Notes: generated by a model from the letters alone, not told the origin. Positions 598 through 49,570 are shown, counted from the stretch's first letter. The stretch is 61,775 nt of DNA from Chitinivibrionales bacterium (GCA_038247415.1 JBBRUX010000024.1:1-61775), one strand, 5' to 3'. Numbers and translations: made by a program.

Positions 598-646
598 TAT
601 GCGATAGCTTTTGCCTTTCCATAGGGCTAAAGCAGAATGAGAATCT

Positions 647-990
647 GGGCGTTCCAGCTTCGCTGTCGATCCTCACCCCGTCCGCCCTAACGCGCTTGAC
701 ATCAGAATGTCTGAACGCGATTACATGGATTATGCGATTACCATGATTAGGCCTGAAAAAATCATGTCCATCACGTAAATTAACACTTCGACATTTCGAC
801 GACGCTCAATGCGGCGAACCGCGCAGGGTCCGAGGTGAGGTTCTAAAGTAAATAAATCCCATAGTTCTTCTTCGGAAAAGATCCCTTGACTTCCGCGCCT
901 GTAAGAAGAGCCGACGGTGCACACCGTGGCGCCCTGATTCAGATTGATGGATTGAAATCTATGAATTTATTAGTTTGGCGACCAAATGGA
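647..990. repeat. Composite palindromic intergenic element, copy 1 (internally deleted)
   Basis: Shares GGGCG..TCCTCACCCC, GCGCTTGACAT, GGATTATGCGATTACCAT, TTGACT.CCGCG and GTAAGAAG.GCCG..GGCGCCC blocks, in the same order, with 27054-27560. Confidence 0.85.
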
Positions 991-16882: not shown

Positions 16883-17890
16883 TTACTTCGCCTTTTTTAA
16901 AGCATCAAATTCTGCGCACAGTGCAACAATACGATCGTATGTTTTTTTATCGATCGACTTGTCGAATAATTTAGGCAAACCGGTTGCGACCACTGTTTTC
17001 CATGCTGCAAGAGCTGCTTGGGATACGGGGTTAATTGTAAGTCCGTGTTGTTGCATAATGGTAAGAGCCGAAGCCTCTGCTGCCCTCGATTCGGCATCCA
17101 TTCCTGCAGAAATTTTTGCAGCGGCATGTATGAGCTGAGGCTTAACAGATGCGTCGATTTTATTCCAGGTATCATTGGTAACGATAATCCCGCCGACAAG
17201 GGGAGCCCAGGATAGTTCGCACATGTTTGTGGCAAGCCCAAACCATTGGTACGAAGCTGCCGAGAGGGGCGTTGTGGTAAAGGCATCTACCATACCGCTT
17301 TGCAAAGATGTCATGAGATCGGTTACCGCGAGCGGAACGGGATTAAAACCCATATTTTTCCAAGCAGAAGCGCCATCGGGGTCGCCAGCCCAAATAAATA
17401 ATTTTTGCTTTTTGAGATCATCGGGGGTTGAAACAGGCGATTTAGAAAAAAAGTGTACCCACCCCACCGTCGACCATGCTACAATAGTAAAGCCTTTTGC
17501 TGCCAGAAGCTGCTCAAATTCAGGTTTCATTTTGCCAAGAACATATGCAAGTTGGTCGTTGTTTGAAATCAACAAAGGCGTTTGAAGCGCGAGAATTTCC
17601 TGGGAGATCCTGCACAATCCAACTCCTGTTATCGCAGCAGCATTCAATTGCCCAACTTTCATTTTACGAATCATATCCATTTCATCTCCAACAATTCCAC
17701 CAGCATAAATTTTCAGGTTAACGGTATTCCCAGAAGTTTTAGCCCATTCATTGCCGATTATGCGCAAGTTTTTGTCCCAAGGGGAATTTGCAGGAGCAAG
17801 GCTACCGAGTTTAATTGAGACAGGAGCAGAATAAGCGAAAGAAAATAAAGTGCTTATAACAAGAGTTTGGGTAAGCAAGAATTGTTTCAT
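16883..17890 (-). CDS. TRAP transporter substrate-binding protein DctP (TatP-like)
   Basis: Signal peptide, IKLGSLAPANSPW, GDEMDMIRKMKVGQL and SLQSGMVD; overlaps upstream gene by ATGA. Confidence 0.9.
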   Translation of the reverse strand: MKQFLLTQTLVISTLFSFAYSAPVSIKLGSLAPANSPWDKNLRIIGNEWAKTSGNTVNLKIYAGGIVGDEMDMIRKMKVGQLNAAAITGVGLCRISQEILALQTPLLISNNDQLAYVLGKMKPEFEQLLAAKGFTIVAWSTVGWVHFFSKSPVSTPDDLKKQKLFIWAGDPDGASAWKNMGFNPVPLAVTDLMTSLQSGMVDAFTTTPLSAASYQWFGLATNMCELSWAPLVGGIIVTNDTWNKIDASVKPQLIHAAAKISAGMDAESRAAEASALTIMQQHGLTINPVSQAALAAWKTVVATGLPKLFDKSIDKKTYDRIVALCAEFDALKKAK

Positions 17891-25599: not shown

Positions 25600-26952
25600 T
25601 TATTCTCTCCCTGGTGCCGGTAGATTTGCTAATCCGTGCTTTTCTGCAACGTGTTGAGAGATTATTCCCTGCGCAACAAGCTTTCTTATAGAGTCGTGTA
25701 GTAAGAGCATTCCGCTTGCTTTTCCGGTTATCATTGCGGTACCAAGCTGATGCATTTCGTCTTTGCGAATCATATTTGACACTGCAGAATTGACAACAAG
25801 AACTTCAAAAGCAGCTGCCATGCCTTTGCCATCGAGGCGGGGGATAAGCTGCTGGGCAATTACTCCGCGCAAAGATTCCGAAACCATGTTTCGCATTGCA
25901 GCTTGCTCTTCTGCGGGAAACGAATCGATAAGTCTATAAATAGTTCGCGATGCACATAGCGTGTTCATGGTTCCTAGTACTAAATGGCCAGTTTCGGCTG
26001 CCGATACAGCAAGGCGCATAGTCGATAAATCTCGCAACTCTCCCACAACTATAACATCGGGATCCTCGCGCAGTGCAGCGCGTAGCGCAGCCTCTTGCGA
26101 CTGGGTATGTACACCCACTTCTCTTTGCGTAATGTGACATTTCGCAGGTGTAAATAAAAATTCGATAGGCGATTCGAGGGTAATTATATGGTCGGTTCGA
26201 TTTTGGTTAATAAGTTCAACAAGTGTTGCGAGTGTTGAAGATTTTCCACTGCTACCAGTTCCCGTTACCAAAACGAGCCCTTGTGCCCACTGAGTAAGAG
26301 AAGTACACGACTCGGGAATGCCAGCTTGCGCAAATGTCCTAATCTGCGATGCGATGCACCGCGCAGCCATATCCCAGCCAGCCCGCTGTTTCATGAGGGT
26401 TATGCGGTATCGATCTTTGTTGGGAGTGGTATGCACAAATTCCAGATCGCCTTTAGATTCGAGCTGATTACATTGATTTTCAGTAAGAATTGCTGCAATG
26501 AGAGACTTTACTCGATCGGAATAAACCGGCTCGGAAGTTAAGTTCGTCAACACTCCAAATCTGCGCGCCATGAGAGGAAGGCCAGGTGACATGTGTATAT
26601 CTGATGCGTTTATAGCCCTTCCGTAGGCAAGCATCTGATTGAGCGTCGAGTTTACGTTTATTTCTGGGTTTACCGTTATTTGAGAATTATTGGTATCGGG
26701 TGCAATCGGTTTGATTTGAGGCTGTGGTTGCGGTGGATTTGCAGCTAAAGTTGTAGGTGGAGTTGGTTGTATAAACCTCTGTATCGCTTTCTCGTAAATC
26801 GATGCAGGAAAGATCCCTTTTTCTACCAGCAGCGCGCCAATATCTTTTCCCGTAGCAATTTGCGGCCACATTTCAAGAATTTGTTCTCGCGAGGCTAGCT
26901 TGTTAGACAAGAGAAAATTTGCTAATTGCTGATTGTCGACTTTTTGGGGCAT
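25600..26952 (-). CDS. PilT/PilU-family ATPase with extra N-terminal domain
   Basis: ASDIHM, VTGTGSSGKSST, LREDPDVIVVGELRD, AAETGHLV; real start taken as ATG 26952 because the upstream frame runs through repeat DNA. Confidence 0.85.
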   Translation of the reverse strand: MPQKVDNQQLANFLLSNKLASREQILEMWPQIATGKDIGALLVEKGIFPASIYEKAIQRFIQPTPPTTLAANPPQPQPQIKPIAPDTNNSQITVNPEINVNSTLNQMLAYGRAINASDIHMSPGLPLMARRFGVLTNLTSEPVYSDRVKSLIAAILTENQCNQLESKGDLEFVHTTPNKDRYRITLMKQRAGWDMAARCIASQIRTFAQAGIPESCTSLTQWAQGLVLVTGTGSSGKSSTLATLVELINQNRTDHIITLESPIEFLFTPAKCHITQREVGVHTQSQEAALRAALREDPDVIVVGELRDLSTMRLAVSAAETGHLVLGTMNTLCASRTIYRLIDSFPAEEQAAMRNMVSESLRGVIAQQLIPRLDGKGMAAAFEVLVVNSAVSNMIRKDEMHQLGTAMITGKASGMLLLHDSIRKLVAQGIISQHVAEKHGLANLPAPGRE

Positions 26953-27053
26953 ATGGAAAGTATATCGTTTAGGGCAGAGAAATTCTAGATGGACAAGATA
27001 AAAAGAATAAAAAAAATAAAAGGAATAAAATATGCATAAATGCATATGGTTTT

Positions 27054-27560
27054 GGGCGTACCGGCTTCCCCGTCGGTCCTCACCCCTTCGGGCGCCCAAA
27101 GGAAGTAGCCTTGGGGTATTTTCCGATGCGGCTTCCTTTACGGGCTCTGGCTTCGCCAGGTGGTCTTTCATGCCATGCGGCACTTCGTGCCCAAGGCATT
27201 CAAGACTGAACGCTTTACTCCGTTTCGCTTTCACCCTCCAGTCCTGGCTAATGCGCTTGACATGAAAGGGGCCTGAACATGATTACAAGGATTATGCGAT
27301 TACCATAATTAATTCGGACAGAAATCAAGATTATCAAGGTAATCATGTGAATCAAGGTTCAGACAATTGACTCCCGCGTCAGGCAGGACTGAAGTGTGAT
27401 GGATGAACAGCGTGAATCCATCAGTCTGCAAAGACCCAGGTGCAAAGCACCGCAGTGCTTGACAGACCGGCTTGCGAAGCAAGAGCACGTAAGAAGGGCC
27501 GGTACCGCAGGTAGGCGCCCAAATTCTGATTCTGTTTAATTCCTAAGTTTGGCGCCCATA
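27054..27560. repeat. Composite palindromic intergenic element, full-length copy 2
   Basis: Left arm 27054-27255 (+) and right arm 27375-27520 (-) are homologous GGGCG...CT(A/G)A(T/C)GCG multi-hairpin units around a CTGAAC...GTTCAG palindrome (27272-27364). Confidence 0.9.
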
Positions 27561-27752
27561 TTTTTTCTTCATCTATTAAAAAGCCGTAGCTCTCAGGAAA
27601 TTATAACAAGGAAAAACTTCTATTGTTATGGTATGGCTATTTAACCTTGCGAAAACTATTTTATTTCGCTTAAATACGGGTGATCACATTCGCCTGCGGG
27701 AAATAAATGTTTCCCGAGCTGTTGTTTCCTAACTCTCGAAAGGACCGATTTC

Positions 27753-30128
27753 ATGGCAACAAAAGTTGCAGACCGGTATCTCAAAGTAGATCCTTGGAAA
27801 GTTATCGAAGAAGGGTTCGAGCATCCGCGGTCTCGCGTTTCTGAATCCATGTTTTGTCTTGCGAACGAATATATGGGTGTTCGCGGATACTTCGATGAAG
27901 GTTACAGTGGCGACCGCCTTTTAGGCTCCTATTTTAATAATTTGTACGAGACAAAAACAGCTGCTCATCCTCAGCATTTTAAAGGTATTGTTACCCGTGA
28001 GTGCTTTGGTGTGAATTCGGTTGATAATTTCTATACGCGCATAACCCTCGATGGGGAAGTGCTCGATCTAGCTAAAGTAAAGTTTTCTGCCTTTTTACGC
28101 ACGCTTAATATGAGCGAAGGTACCATGGAACGTTCATTTGTGTGGACGACAAAAAACGGCAAAAAGGTGAAATGCATCTTTGAACGTTTTTTGAGCATGT
28201 CGGTTCCTTATATGGTATGTCAACGTGTGTCGTTTACAGCACTTAATTTTACCGGTGCGATACAAATCAAATCGGGACTCGACTTTTCTATCATCCATGA
28301 AATTGCTTCGGGTTGGAGCCAGACAAAAGTTGCTTCTTCTACCGAAAATGCAGGGAAAAATTTCTGGACTGTTCCTAAAATGGAGCATGCTGGCGATTCG
28401 GTTTCTGTTATAGGTAAAACTATTAATAGTGGCCATCTGTTGTATTCGAGTTTCCGTATCGATTCGAGCACTCCTATTGCGCCAAAATTTGTTCGGCAAG
28501 AAAAAATTGCCACACTCGATTTTTCGATCAGGCTTGTTAAGGATGTCGAAGCGAGTTTCGACAAAATCATTACAAATTTTTGGGAAAAAAGCGATCAGAT
28601 CGAAAAAGTCTGGTCTAAGGGCGCAGCCATTACCAAGAAAAACGTAAAGGCTACCTTTAAGTCTGCACATGCTCAGCAGAAAGCTTATTGGGTAAAAGCA
28701 TGGGATATGATCGATATGCCTATCGAAGGCGATCCCGAAAATCAGCAGGGTCTTCGATTCTCTCTTTTTAATTTGTACCAGACCTATCATGGTTTTGATG
28801 CAGGTTTAAATGTGCCTTGCAAAGGTTTAACCGCAGAAGTTTACTATGGCGCAATTTTCTGGGATACAGAAACTTATTGTATGCCTTTCTATATGCTTAA
28901 TAATCCTAAAGCTGCGCGCAATCTCATTTTGTATCGGCATAAATATTTGCCTCAGGCAGTTGCACGTGCAAAGGAACTCGATTGCGAAGGTGCTCGTTAC
29001 CCCATGATCACCCTCGATGGCACGGAATCGTGCGCAACATGGCAACATGGCGACTTCGAAATTCATGTGAGCGTTGCTATTTCGTATGCTATTTGGATGT
29101 ACACCCGTACCTGTCAGGATACCGAGCTCCTCTACAAAGAGGGTATCGAGATGCTCCTTCAGATTTCACGTTTTTATGCAAGCTGGGGTGAATACAGCCC
29201 TAAAAACGGCGACTTTTGTTTGTATGGAGTTATGGGTCCCGACGAATATCACATGAATGTAAACAATAACGTTTACACAAATGTTATGGCAAAGAAATCA
29301 TTCGAATTTACCCTCGAAGTTGCTGTTGCAATGCAGAAAAAAGCTCCCGATCTGTGGAAAAAGGTTGCCAAGAAAGTTGCGCTACGTGATGATGAGCTTG
29401 CTAATTGGAAAAAGATGGCTAAGAAAATGCGCATCCCAATGGACGTCAAAACAGGTCTGCTTGAACAACATGACGGCTATTTTGATTTGCCTGAAGTTGA
29501 TGTTAAAAACTTGCCAGAAGACCAGATCCCTATTTATAAAAATTGGTCGTATGTCAGGATTTTCCGCTATAACATGGTTAAGCAGCCCGATTCGCTTCTC
29601 TTGCATTTGTTTTATAGCAAAGATTATCCAATCGAGCAGAAAAAGATCAACTACGATTATTATGAAGCAAGAACCATTCACGAATCTTCTCTTTCGCCTG
29701 GCATACACTCTATTTTGGCTGCCGAACTGGGTATGAAAAAAGAAGCTGATGAGTTCTTCCAGTATATGACTCGTTTAGATCTTGATAACTATAACAAGAA
29801 TACCGACCAAGGTCTTCATGTTACCTCTATGTCGGGTGCATATTTGAATATTCTTTACGGATACGGTGGCTTCCGTTCAGATTATGACAAGTTGTTTTTT
29901 GCACCTTCGATCCCTGCTCATTGGAAATCGCTGAGCTTTAAAATGATGTATCGTGGTAGTGTTCTTAAAATTACCATCGATCAGAAAAATGTGACCTTCG
30001 AAGTTGTCTCTGGTAAATTGTTTGATATCCTTGTGTACGGCGAAAAAGTTGTAGTTTCTGATAAGCCCACAGTTATCAAATTGATCCCACTCGGTGTTAA
30101 GACTGCAAAAATCGCAAAAAAGAAGTAA
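27753..30128 (+). CDS. Glycoside hydrolase family 65 (alpha-glucoside phosphorylase)
   Basis: ESMFCLANEYMGVRG, KGLTAEVYYG.IFWDTE, GPDEYH, KQPD and HESSLS. Confidence 0.92.
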   Translation: MATKVADRYLKVDPWKVIEEGFEHPRSRVSESMFCLANEYMGVRGYFDEGYSGDRLLGSYFNNLYETKTAAHPQHFKGIVTRECFGVNSVDNFYTRITLDGEVLDLAKVKFSAFLRTLNMSEGTMERSFVWTTKNGKKVKCIFERFLSMSVPYMVCQRVSFTALNFTGAIQIKSGLDFSIIHEIASGWSQTKVASSTENAGKNFWTVPKMEHAGDSVSVIGKTINSGHLLYSSFRIDSSTPIAPKFVRQEKIATLDFSIRLVKDVEASFDKIITNFWEKSDQIEKVWSKGAAITKKNVKATFKSAHAQQKAYWVKAWDMIDMPIEGDPENQQGLRFSLFNLYQTYHGFDAGLNVPCKGLTAEVYYGAIFWDTETYCMPFYMLNNPKAARNLILYRHKYLPQAVARAKELDCEGARYPMITLDGTESCATWQHGDFEIHVSVAISYAIWMYTRTCQDTELLYKEGIEMLLQISRFYASWGEYSPKNGDFCLYGVMGPDEYHMNVNNNVYTNVMAKKSFEFTLEVAVAMQKKAPDLWKKVAKKVALRDDELANWKKMAKKMRIPMDVKTGLLEQHDGYFDLPEVDVKNLPEDQIPIYKNWSYVRIFRYNMVKQPDSLLLHLFYSKDYPIEQKKINYDYYEARTIHESSLSPGIHSILAAELGMKKEADEFFQYMTRLDLDNYNKNTDQGLHVTSMSGAYLNILYGYGGFRSDYDKLFFAPSIPAHWKSLSFKMMYRGSVLKITIDQKNVTFEVVSGKLFDILVYGEKVVVSDKPTVIKLIPLGVKTAKIAKKK

Positions 30129-46826: not shown

Positions 46827-47477
46827 TTACTGGTATCGCGTAATAACTTCTGCTGGATTACCAATTGCAACACAATGCGGCGGAATATCTTTTGTGACAA
46901 CAGAATGGCCGCCAATTGTGCAATGATGCCCGATATTCACACCCGGCATAATAATGGTGTGAGCACCTATCCAAGTATGGTCTCCAACACTCACTGGTGC
47001 CATAAAGCAATTGTCGAGTCCTGCAGGTTTTGTGGGATCTACAGGGTCCATAACGCAGTCCATAATAACAATCCCAGAGGCCAAGGCCAGATTTTTTCCC
47101 AGGGTAACGCCTACGTAGGAAATAATAGAGAAGAATCCCATCCAGTTTTCTTCGGCTATGGTGATTTTTCCGCATTCCTCGGGTTTATCACCCCACTTGA
47201 CAACGGTCATACGGCATCTCTCAGGCACAAAGTGGTTATCGATAGAACAATCGAGCCAATTGGGAAGCGTAATGGCACCTTTGAAGTCGTCGAAGTTAAC
47301 CGGTATTCCATCTGGTTTTGTAAGATCTCGATATTCGATATAAGGCTCTTCGAGAAGAAAGCGCATGGGCGTTGGGGTAGTTACCCCGAGTTCATTCATG
47401 CGGGTTATGTCGGTTGGTGGATTGCGACGTATTCCGTAAAAATCGTGTGTATCGGCTGGACGATATGAAAGAAGCAT
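46827..47477 (-). CDS. Hexapeptide-repeat (LbH) acyltransferase
   Basis: VGDHTWIGAHTIIMPGVNIGHHCTIGGHSVVTKDIP..GNPA. Confidence 0.88.
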   Translation of the reverse strand: MLLSYRPADTHDFYGIRRNPPTDITRMNELGVTTPTPMRFLLEEPYIEYRDLTKPDGIPVNFDDFKGAITLPNWLDCSIDNHFVPERCRMTVVKWGDKPEECGKITIAEENWMGFFSIISYVGVTLGKNLALASGIVIMDCVMDPVDPTKPAGLDNCFMAPVSVGDHTWIGAHTIIMPGVNIGHHCTIGGHSVVTKDIPPHCVAIGNPAEVITRYQ

Positions 47478-47511
47478 AGCATTGTCCTCTCAGTAAAGGC
47501 TTGCGCGGATG

Positions 47512-48180
47512 TTAAGTTTTTTGAGGTGCTGGATCCATGAATTTTTTAAATACTGCCATGTTTTTTGCAGGATTACCAGCCACAACACCATGGGCTGGAA
47601 CGCTCCACATCACAACAGCACCTGGCTTAATAACAGCATGATGCCCAATAGTTACACCTTTAAGAATGGTTGCGCCAAAGCCGATCCAAACATCATCTTC
47701 GATCACGATGGGGGATCGTTTTTTATTTTCTACGGTATCTGGCAATCGTCGATCGGCTTGATGTCCATCACAATCTTGAATAATAACGCGTGGTTCCAAA
47801 TGAACTCGATCGCCGATCGTGATTTTTGAAAAAGACAAAATAGAAGTATGGTTAAGATCGGTTTTACCCACCGTAATGCTACCAAAATCATCTGGTTCGC
47901 TCGTCATTTTACCAACCGTCAAACGAACTGGCCCAGCAGGAAACGAGCTCAGTTCCGATGCATTAATATTACCGCCAAGAGAAATTCGGCCTTTAAAAAG
48001 CTCGAGGTCAAACGTGTCGGTATCGGATTTAGTAAAATCTTCGTAGCAAAGCCAGGGAAGTCCTGTGCAGCTAAAATTTGGAGGCAGGGAAACGCCTGCT
48101 TTGCGAAGCATCTCTTCGCCTTTTTTGCTGTGGGCTGCTAAGTCGGGATATAACTCCACATACGATTGAAAACGTGCCAT
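47512..48180 (-). CDS. Hexapeptide-repeat (LbH) acyltransferase
   Basis: DCDGH, PIVIEDDVWIGFGATILKGVTIG..GAVV..VAGNPA. Confidence 0.88.
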   Translation of the reverse strand: MARFQSYVELYPDLAAHSKKGEEMLRKAGVSLPPNFSCTGLPWLCYEDFTKSDTDTFDLELFKGRISLGGNINASELSSFPAGPVRLTVGKMTSEPDDFGSITVGKTDLNHTSILSFSKITIGDRVHLEPRVIIQDCDGHQADRRLPDTVENKKRSPIVIEDDVWIGFGATILKGVTIGHHAVIKPGAVVMWSVPAHGVVAGNPAKNMAVFKKFMDPAPQKT

Positions 48181-49407: not shown

Positions 49408-49463
49408 AGATGGTTTTGTTTTAAGGATTTGTTTTTATTGATAGAATTGACAAATCGCAATTT

Positions 49464-49570
49464 GGGCGTTCCAGCTTTGCTGTGGTCCATGCCCCTTTGG
49501 TCGCCCAAAGGAAGTACCCGTAGCGCCCAGAATCAGATTGTGTAAAATTTAATAGCTGAGCGTCCCGATT
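49464..49570. repeat. Composite intergenic element, copy 3 (minimal deletion derivative)
   Basis: TTTGGGCGTTCCAGCTTTGCTG..CGCCCAAAGGAAGTA matches the left end; GTAGCGCCCAGAATCAGATT matches the right end of copies 1 and 2. Confidence 0.8.

Follow-up and report, generated by a model that had tools for sequence, protein, structure and literature searches.

The window analysed here, a 61,775-nucleotide stretch that makes up the whole of contig C24 in the genome assembly of a Chitinivibrionales bacterium (3.84 Mb in 99 contigs, 43.7% G+C), contains at positions 27054-27520 an inverted pair of homologous multi-hairpin units. This pair belongs to a real, non-coding, structured and dispersed repeat family without an Rfam entry, which on balance is probably non-autonomous mobile DNA of the kind represented by REPINs (doublets of repetitive extragenic palindromes, REPs), bacterial interspersed mosaic elements (BIMEs) and miniature inverted-repeat transposable elements (MITEs).

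The two arms of the pair are colinear once the right one is reverse-complemented, with a mean column identity of 73%, and all the stems listed in an earlier sequence-only reading of the window, which had proposed the inverted pair, are present. The left arm begins with GGGCG (27054-27058) and the right one closes with the complement CGCCC (27516-27520), while the left-arm tail is CAGTCCTGGCTAATGCG and the right arm, when reverse-complemented, ends in CAGTCCTGCCTGACGCG. Stem pairs of the left and right arms correspond as CTGGC/GCCAG and CTTGC/GCAAG, GTCTT/AAGAC and GTCTG/CAGAC, GGCAC/GTGCC and GGTGC/GCACC, and TGAA../..TTCA and TGATGGA/TCCATCA. The span flagged in that reading is slightly narrow, as the repeated composite extends over approximately 26995-27562 when the leaders are included, with cores at 27133-27248 (plus strand) and 27382-27497 (minus strand).

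We built a covariance model, R1, from 37 aligned near-complete core units of this genome (116 positions and 26 base pairs in four helices). Both window arms, which were among the 37 sequences used to build it, match R1 over its full length (115.4 and 133.5 bits, with E values of the order of 1e-36 and 1e-42), and R1 also matches at least 20 copies outside the seed alignment. Across the genome it gives 59 matches at E ≤ 0.01, every one outside long open reading frames (ORFs) and between unrelated genes, and all 58 units whose context was examined, with ORFs called by a simple script, are intergenic. BLAST of the left arm returned 39 matches in the genome (E down to 1e-70 for other copies) and BLAST of the whole composite 88 aligned pieces, so the genome-wide search proposed in the sequence-only reading reveals a dispersed family. 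Rfam 15 produced no match at gathering score in the window, two irrelevant weak matches and nothing relevant at E ≤ 10 in the interval 26900-27700, and, for 20 further copies, no match at E ≤ 1 that falls on the elements. The repeat therefore corresponds to no family described in Rfam and is not a Flavo-1 RNA, the motif to which it had first been likened. Full-text literature on Fibrobacter repeats and on multicopy structured interspersed repeats yielded nothing on the R1 family. Two forward frames are free of stops in 70 and 74 of 87 copies, which is uninformative for a short GC-rich unit.

The claim that the stems differ in sequence and still pair was borne out by the family alignments. When the 37 units of this genome were aligned with MAFFT only, standard pairs occupied 85.6% of cells, compared with 73.3±0.9 after shuffling, and double changes were found in 14 of the 26 pairs (132 cells, against 50.7±6.0 in shuffled alignments and 10-30 in slid controls). 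With 103 copies from several genera, an alignment fitted to R1 and hence leaning towards the model, double changes reached 24 of the 26 pairs and 556 cells, against 176±10 shuffled and 61-145 in slid controls. An independent analysis of 40 diverse copies with MAFFT and RNAalifold recovered hairpins H2, H3 and H4, with double changes in 14 of the 19 predicted pairs. These results support the action of selection, or of another process that preserves pairing, on the fold. Between genera the stems are almost wholly replaced, H2 reading for example GTCTTTCATGCC, GTCTGGGGAGCC, GTGTTTGAAGCC, GTATTTTCTGCC or GTACAAAAATCC, and the unpaired motifs GCCGGT, TGCGG, CCTG.GTC and ACTG, the H4 loop TCACTCCGTT and the tail CACCCTC.GTCCTC stay constant. 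A fifth hairpin, hp0, which directly follows GGGCG, varies in sequence and length and keeps its complementarity; a third variant of this first hairpin, reported earlier near 914-927 of the window, is indeed present on the minus strand at 910-934 (GGGCGCCACGGTGTGCACCGTCGGC). The stems at the end module are GC-rich and 4-13 bp long. The picture of decay within subfamilies is mixed: in this genome 26 of 40 stem differences break pairing, and in other genera 57 of 69 within-cluster stem differences, counted where the consensus pair is standard, are fully compensated.

The basic unit of the family measures about 190-250 nt and follows the order leader, end module, optional insert, four-hairpin core and conserved tail. 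The leader consists of AT-rich short tandem repeats, of AAGAAT type in this genome and CAAA.T type in the related genus g22, and its repeat number varies: the window has three 18-nt copies at 9-nt spacing, contig C3 has six 11-mers and C9 about eight 6-mers. The end module is T(C/T)TGGGCG followed by hp0 and CCGTCG, and a TTGAC or GTCAA motif lies close to the end of the tail. Complete elements, like most members of the family, are flanked by two end modules in inverted orientation, one of type L (GGGCRTT...) and the other of type R (GGGCGCC...), and hold two, one or zero cores between them. L was paired with R in all seven pairs resolved by script and homotypic pairs were absent, the other 13 rows of that output being regular-expression false positives or unclassified. 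In 19 of 43 units a strict 9-nt end motif is found in inverted orientation no more than 450 nt downstream, compared with 3.2% of 20,000 random windows; as this motif detects just 31 of 56 true forward ends, the real share of units with an inverted end must be higher. A perfect 20-nt inverted end was found at C86:324, and leader plus GGGCG stand inverted at both ends of the window copy and of the coreless forms.

The family forms a size series that runs from two-core elements of 470-530 bp (the window copy and those on C16, C28, C65 and C17), through one-core elements closed by a bare inverted end (C13, C21, C23, C79, C3 and C9), to coreless mini-doublets of about 90-110 bp (C8, C34, C47 and 49455-49540 in the window) and end-plus-tail deletions (636-703 in the window, and C39), and within this series the window copy is a complete two-core element. 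Deletion derivatives keep the ends and not the core. Orphan end modules number 13 and true orphan tails about one, according to our own reading of eight rows, the rest of which were four opposite-strand echoes inside true copies, two other repeats and one internal deletion.

In the window copy the L-end leader (26995-27053, plus strand; repeat family D1) has its three tandem copies at 26995-27030 and continues to ATGCATATGGTTTT, which abuts GGGCG; comparable AAGAAT-type leaders stand before GGGC in nearly all copies. The L-type end module (27054-27079, plus strand), read from the sequence as GGGCG, the variable hairpin hp0 and CCGTCGG (GGGCGTACCGGCTTCCCCGTCGGTCC), has other stems with conserved complementarity in other copies and also occurs alone as an orphan end. 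It is followed by the optional insert of about 50 nt (27080-27132, plus strand; CTCACCCCTTCGGGCGCCCAAAGGAAGTAGCCTTGGGGTATTTTCCGATGCGGC), which was counted by eye in 13 of 58 units of this genome and is missing from the right arm. Core unit B1 (27133-27248, plus strand; E = 1.6e-36 over model positions 1-116) comprises hairpins H1-H4, the conserved junctions and the start of the tail, whose end (27249-27265, plus strand; TAATGCGCTTGACATGA) contains the TTGAC motif and is conserved among B1-type copies. Spacer S (27266-27374) is an imperfect palindrome (inverted repeats I1 and I9) composed of GATTA and TTGAT motifs spaced about 9 nt apart, and is a repeated module itself, present also at about 700-790 of the window and common to C16, C17, C28, C38, C65 and C68. 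Core unit B2 (27382-27497, minus strand; E = 1.5e-42) has the four hairpins of B1 with other stem sequences, and is bounded by the R-type end module (27497-27520, minus strand), read on that strand as GGGCGCCTACCTGCGGTACCGGCC, and by the R-end leader (27521-27562, minus strand; repeat families D2 and D6), where AGAAT repeats are accompanied by a second solo end fragment, GGCGCCCA, at 27551-27558. The same duplication of the R end is seen on C3, C95, C38 and C4.

Reduced forms occur elsewhere in the window. An internally deleted copy (636-703, plus strand), in which the leader and GGGCGTTCCAGCTTCGCTGTCG are fused directly to the tail CGTCCGCCCTAACGCGCTTGACAT and an S-like spacer follows, was counted as an orphan 5' module; the solo R-type end module at 910-934, identified by reading the sequence, faces it. 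In the coreless mini-doublet (49455-49540; sequence reading and BLAST match), an L-type end with GGGCG at 49464-49468 faces an inverted end with CGCCC at 49524-49528. The complete copy itself sits in a gap of about 800 nt between two divergent genes, a T2SSE-type ATPase gene that ends at 26952 on the minus strand and a GH65 glycoside hydrolase gene that starts at 27753. Further repeats accompany the family. A repeated linker, GGGGGTAGGGGGTTGGGCTATCTGGAAAGCATTTTCCAAGTTGGATTTAAAGGG, was observed in flanks at C1:122349, C28:10274, C54, C70 and C79:8723 of this genome, after the tails of one subfamily and before the leader of the next unit. In g22 a second abundant mosaic repeat, GTGTTTTCTACC..GAGGGCGTTGCGGGAGGGGG..GCGTTTGCC..GGCAAACATCGCC..GGGGGAACCGC..GCGGTTCCCCC, often stands directly behind R1 units (in genome G145, L146:13700-14400 and 17100-17540 and L145:10340-10560), and its presence differs between G145 and genome G119.

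The distribution of the family is patchy. R1 has no match in any of the six other genomes of the bacterium's own family. Of 150 other genomes drawn from across the phylum 9 have matches, and these belong without exception to the same order: five of six in genus g22 and one of two in g31, of another family, two of two in g15 (one copy each) and one of six in g8 (a weak match). At least 22-24 scored R1 copies were counted in each of genomes G119, G145 and G135, and BLAST gives about 40 copies in G119. BLAST of the core against 40 relatives found no match, and the other genera were reached by the covariance model alone. A motif scan of metagenome contigs located 32 loci, 29 of them with an R1 match, and a pattern scan of 185,579 species genomes, with the bacterium's own genome left out, gave eight single matches in unrelated phyla, which we take as chance (about four were estimated).

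Several copies are nearly identical. B2 cores sharing 99% identity have copies on C39, C63, C65 and C95 and are found at no fewer than three loci with unrelated flanks (the window, C63 and C95), and the two-core composite is repeated on C16, C17, C28 and C65 (81-96% identity), with a shortened copy on C39 (95%). Taken with the patchy distribution, the near-identical B2 cores suggest that the element has spread recently. In sediment sequencing runs containing the organism, depth rises from about 11 to 144-407 across the repeat, at whose edges contigs stop; several of the assembly's contigs likewise start or finish inside it. Four sediment DNA runs provided no contig that spans the repeat or skips it cleanly, and the joints found fit other copies of the family.

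A mobile-DNA interpretation is favoured by the copy number and spread of the family, the near-identical copies among unrelated flanks, the paired ends of two types, a deletion series in which those ends survive, the lack of a strand preference relative to neighbouring genes, the patchy distribution and the scarcity of G·U pairs. It is also favoured by three orthologous intergenic sites at which G145 has the element and G119 lacks it. If the family is mobile DNA, the end modules would be what a trans-acting enzyme recognises, and the hairpins would owe their importance to a single-stranded stage in copying or movement. Lineages that produce copies would then have to keep the fold, and settled copies would decay.

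Several observations weigh against this interpretation. The first is that no mobilising enzyme was identified. Junctions that stay fixed while stems change are more typical of a functional RNA or of the RNA of a ribonucleoprotein (RNP) than of the interior of a MITE. A·C and C·A cells number 94 against 33 for G·T, and by column A·C is the commoner in 15 and G·T in 4, with 4 ties (two-sided sign test, p ~0.02). This excess is a hint of a strand-specific fold, which plain double-stranded recognition would not predict; if one strand folds, it would be the complement of the model strand, three columns carrying much of the excess. Within subfamilies of this genome, differences are fewer at paired than at unpaired sites (4.3% against 7.2%), so some constraint on settled copies is possible. 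By eye, about 18 of 43 units in this genome have no inverted end within 450 nt, and the g22 units seem to stand alone, the 130 nt downstream showing no inverted partner. Finally, neither a clean empty site nor an insertion boundary was found at the three sites compared between G145 and G119, which proved to be hot spots rich in repeats; G119 holds other repeats there, so that insertion, deletion and replacement cannot be told apart. Inspection of the flanks of mini-doublets by eye revealed no evident direct repeat of the target-site duplication type.

The search for a mobiliser covered the window, this genome and its relatives. No mobilising enzyme lies within the window, in agreement with the sequence-only reading, which had also proposed looking for an HUH or RAYT (REP-associated tyrosine) transposase flanked by the units; no such gene was found: the Y1 loci examined have no R1 unit nearby, and Y1 genes do not co-occur with the family. 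The one Y1_Tnp match in this genome is an ORF of 327 amino acids on C19 (G000:C19:51846-52829; L001:1459-2442, plus strand) without a unit in its vicinity. Its family is present in 40 of 151 genomes, including all six R1-free genomes of the bacterium's own family, and has no match in the R1-rich G119 and G145, where a model of the Y1 family gives marginal matches only. Conversely, R1 applied to 11 loci around Y1 genes gave no significant match (best E = 0.0016, 15.6 bits). Several related genomes contain 6 to 14 or more scored matches to the 327-residue protein, which is single-copy in this genome; these numbers suggest an active IS200-like family in the order.

A second Y1-type gene was observed in G145 at about C71:62980-63546 (L198:1228-1794, minus strand). 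This 188-residue ORF has an HVH (HUH-like) motif and YIEANP, matches Y1_Tnp of the RAYT type weakly, and is conserved in place between two species (syntenic match at G119:C69:5428-5586). Next to it lies a block of intergenic DNA made up of another palindromic repeat (GGGGGAACC...GGTTCCCCC), and that repeat, rather than R1, may be its cognate REP.

The remaining enzyme classes were no more rewarding. PF07282 (TnpB) had no match in this genome and IS110 nothing above cut-off. A reverse transcriptase is expected to carry a YADD box; the sole RVT_1 match in the genome is a fragment of 182 amino acids (C5, about 47225-47773; L143:1408-1956, minus strand) which reads YADG. Among convergent end-module pairs no more than 8 kb apart, one encloses an ORF (C86; L193:382-1551, minus strand), with ends 1.9 kb apart, an arrangement that may be due to chance; as a candidate parent element it was rejected, the enclosed ORF encoding an AAA_14/DUF4143 ATPase and not a transposase. 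Around 20 metagenome copies there are 35 flanking ORFs, 23 of which were scanned against Pfam and belong to unrelated housekeeping families or to none, with no transposase, integrase or reverse-transcriptase family among them. The Y1/RAYT-type, TnpB, IS110 and reverse-transcriptase genes found in these genomes were thus tested and do not fit as the mobiliser.

A multicopy structured RNA, whether a stabiliser or terminator of transcript ends, a sponge for proteins or the RNA component of an RNP, with dispersal secondary, is the alternative that survives best, and we regard it as unlikely while taking it seriously. The strong covariation in four or five helices and the conserved unpaired junctions and loop across genera are what such an RNA would display, and it would be a new one given that no Rfam family matches. 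Many units lie 29-110 nt behind a co-oriented upstream gene, and the A·C excess fits a fold on one defined strand. Orientation with respect to the flanking genes is nevertheless random (upstream gene opposite in 30 cases, same in 25 and missing in 3; downstream gene opposite in 22, same in 20 and missing, at contig ends, in 16). Both strands fold about equally well, with z-scores of -3.3/-2.8 and -1.85/-1.83 as RNA and of -2.2 to -2.5 as DNA. On the model strand G·U cells (G·T or T·G) account for 1.3% of pair cells (33 of 2509), a low figure for a functional RNA, and on the opposite strand for 3.7%. The ends, rather than the core, are what deletion derivatives retain. Comparison of the copies by eye found no conserved promoter or terminator of the element, and the candidate promoter pair TTGAC-N17-19-TATTTT is likewise, by eye, not conserved in or before it. 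We also considered the leader as a promoter and rejected this, since its TAAGAT-type repeats resemble a -10 box with no conserved -35 box and differ from the motif at tRNA genes. That motif, TTGAC-N17-19-TAT(T/A)ATTTT, recurs by eye upstream of some tRNA genes of this genome and may be a housekeeping promoter motif.

A bolder possibility, which we put forward as speculative and consider distinctly unlikely, is that the four-hairpin core does the work in a bacterial mobile element of a new kind, one dependent on a folded single strand. The folded strand would be an RNA that is copied back or acts as a guide, or a single-stranded DNA intermediate, served by an unrecognised partner enzyme, and the leader would be a tail made during insertion.

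The compensatory changes might also stem from mutation at the DNA level, by arm-to-arm copying in quasi-palindromes through template switching, and not from selection on the fold, which would make the element a decaying palindromic repeat. Such a process would account for changed pairs that are nearly all perfect Watson-Crick with very few wobble intermediates, and for the large share of fully compensated differences in other genera (57/69). We judge it improbable, as it gives no reason for the constancy between genera of the unpaired junctions and of hairpin number, order and spacing while stems are replaced, and the stems of H1 and H3 (5 bp, with 3-nt loops) are very short for it.

An element resembling short interspersed nuclear elements (SINEs), or an RNA-guided one, whose complement strand would be transcribed and folded and then either copied back or used to guide insertion, with the leader as its 3' tail, appears more doubtful still. 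In its favour, the short tandem repeats, variable in number, are confined to one end (six of 11 nt on C3, about eight of 6 nt on C9 and, in the window, a shorter run with 9-nt spacing), truncated copies keep the leader end, and the wobble asymmetry points to the complement strand. The enzymes are lacking, however: the sole reverse-transcriptase match is the 182-residue fragment, TnpB has no match and IS110 none above cut-off. Moreover, the truncated forms are mostly inverted end pairs, which fit a DNA element better.

A tRNA-linked repeat or tRNA-end mimic, or membership in Flavo-1, is very improbable and largely refuted. In its favour, the outer ends read GGGCGxx...xxCGCCCA, and GGGCGTT and GCGCCCA are identical to acceptor-stem ends of the genome's valine tRNAs. 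Against it, covariance models for tRNA, RtT and Flavo-1 give no match on the element, and a tRNA gene is found within 1 kb at 4 of the 50 loci, compared with 4.5% for comparable gaps (P = 0.19). The ends of one element are unlike in type and pair over just 4-5 bp, so that no acceptor-like stem is kept by covariation. In G119 a tRNA gene (C142; L091:58-131, minus strand) was observed about 60-100 nt upstream of an R1 unit in opposite orientation, a proximity that is not enriched in the window's genome.

Dispersed palindromic repeats such as REPs, BIMEs, REPINs, CGTC repeats and MITEs shape bacterial genomes, break assemblies and alter expression, and what moves them is often unknown. The R1 family is an unusually elaborate case, joining a REP-like end module to a 116-nt four-hairpin core in which the stems are replaced and the junctions fixed. 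Present in about 60 copies in this genome and in 20-40 or more elsewhere, it offers a defined object on which to ask whether the fold is kept by selection during movement, by a role as RNA or by a mutational process, and which enzyme moves tag-bearing palindromes that lack a dedicated transposase. On the practical side, the R1 model would mask a frequent source of contig breaks and of false calls of novel non-coding RNA in metagenome-assembled genomes of Fibrobacterota.

Among known systems, Flavo-1 RNAs are GC-rich hairpins in intergenic DNA of the Fibrobacteres-Chlorobi-Bacteroidetes group, and the R1 element is alike in its GC-rich intergenic hairpins and different in that the Flavo-1 covariance model does not match it. 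Derivatives of IS200/IS605 such as PATE and omega-RNA are expected to show a strong orientation bias with the replication strand. The R1 family differs from them in that no TnpB match was found, in having no units at the Y1 genes examined and in showing no significant orientation bias: where GC skew is clear, as it is in this genome, single units with |GC skew| > 0.01 have the model strand on the G-rich strand in 22 cases and on the C-rich strand in 13, which is not significant. The BOX elements of pneumococci and the bcr repeats of Bacillus cereus are modular repeats to which the R1 element can be likened, and the bcr repeats also have predicted stable folds with compensatory changes, as here. 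MITEs with terminal inverted repeats (PMC3184786) agree with the R1 element in that both are non-autonomous, modular, 90-530 bp long and provided with inverted ends and nested internal deletions. Terminal inverted repeats, as in MITEs of DDE transposons, are present in the R1 element; the differences are that no parent insertion sequence with R1 ends was found and that the R1 ends contain a covarying hairpin.

The end module can also be compared with the CGTC-tagged REPs, which Di Nocera et al. (2013, PMC3733652) place in Bacteroidetes and Chlorobi among other phyla and describe as having an unpaired CGTC tag at one end, a CCA tail, and stems of 8-9 bp that begin with A/T pairs and enclose loops of 4-5 nt. 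As in that account, the R1 end is a palindrome with a conserved unpaired tag, CCGTCG after the hairpin, on whose complement strand the module ends in CCA, and the repeats are mostly inverted dimers, often heterodimers, without a dedicated transposase. The R1 tags, TGG...CGTC on one strand and GACG...CCA on the other, are, as we read that paper, not in the arrangement it gives, and the R1 stems are GC-rich and of 4-13 bp. As a REP unit the end module fits in size and form, but this concerns just the outer 25-45 nt, and its tag is neither GTAG nor arranged like the published CGTC tag.

BIMEs bind the host proteins IHF, gyrase and Pol I. In architecture the R1 element comes closest to REPINs and BIMEs, and the comparison with inverted doublets of this type made in the sequence-only reading holds at that level. 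These are the REP doublets of Pseudomonas and Escherichia coli (PMC3116915, PMC3333891, PMC2817692, PMC3337134), with short palindromic end modules and conserved unpaired flanks, which the R1 ends resemble in size and form. They are extragenic and dispersed, and arranged as inverted doublets with a defined spacer that recur as a unit at several loci, features that the R1 element shares. The BIME-like alternation of two unit types in orientation is matched by the L/R pairing in seven of seven cases, with the shared spacer S as linker. The differences are that no RAYT gene is flanked by R1 units, as it would be in a REPIN system, and no Y1 gene co-occurs with them; that a short-tandem-repeat leader is present; and that a 116-nt four-hairpin core lies between the ends, giving a unit of 190-250 nt against 20-40 nt. 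What is new in an otherwise REPIN- and BIME-like architecture is the large, conserved core of four hairpins that separates the ends, along with the leader of tandem repeats.

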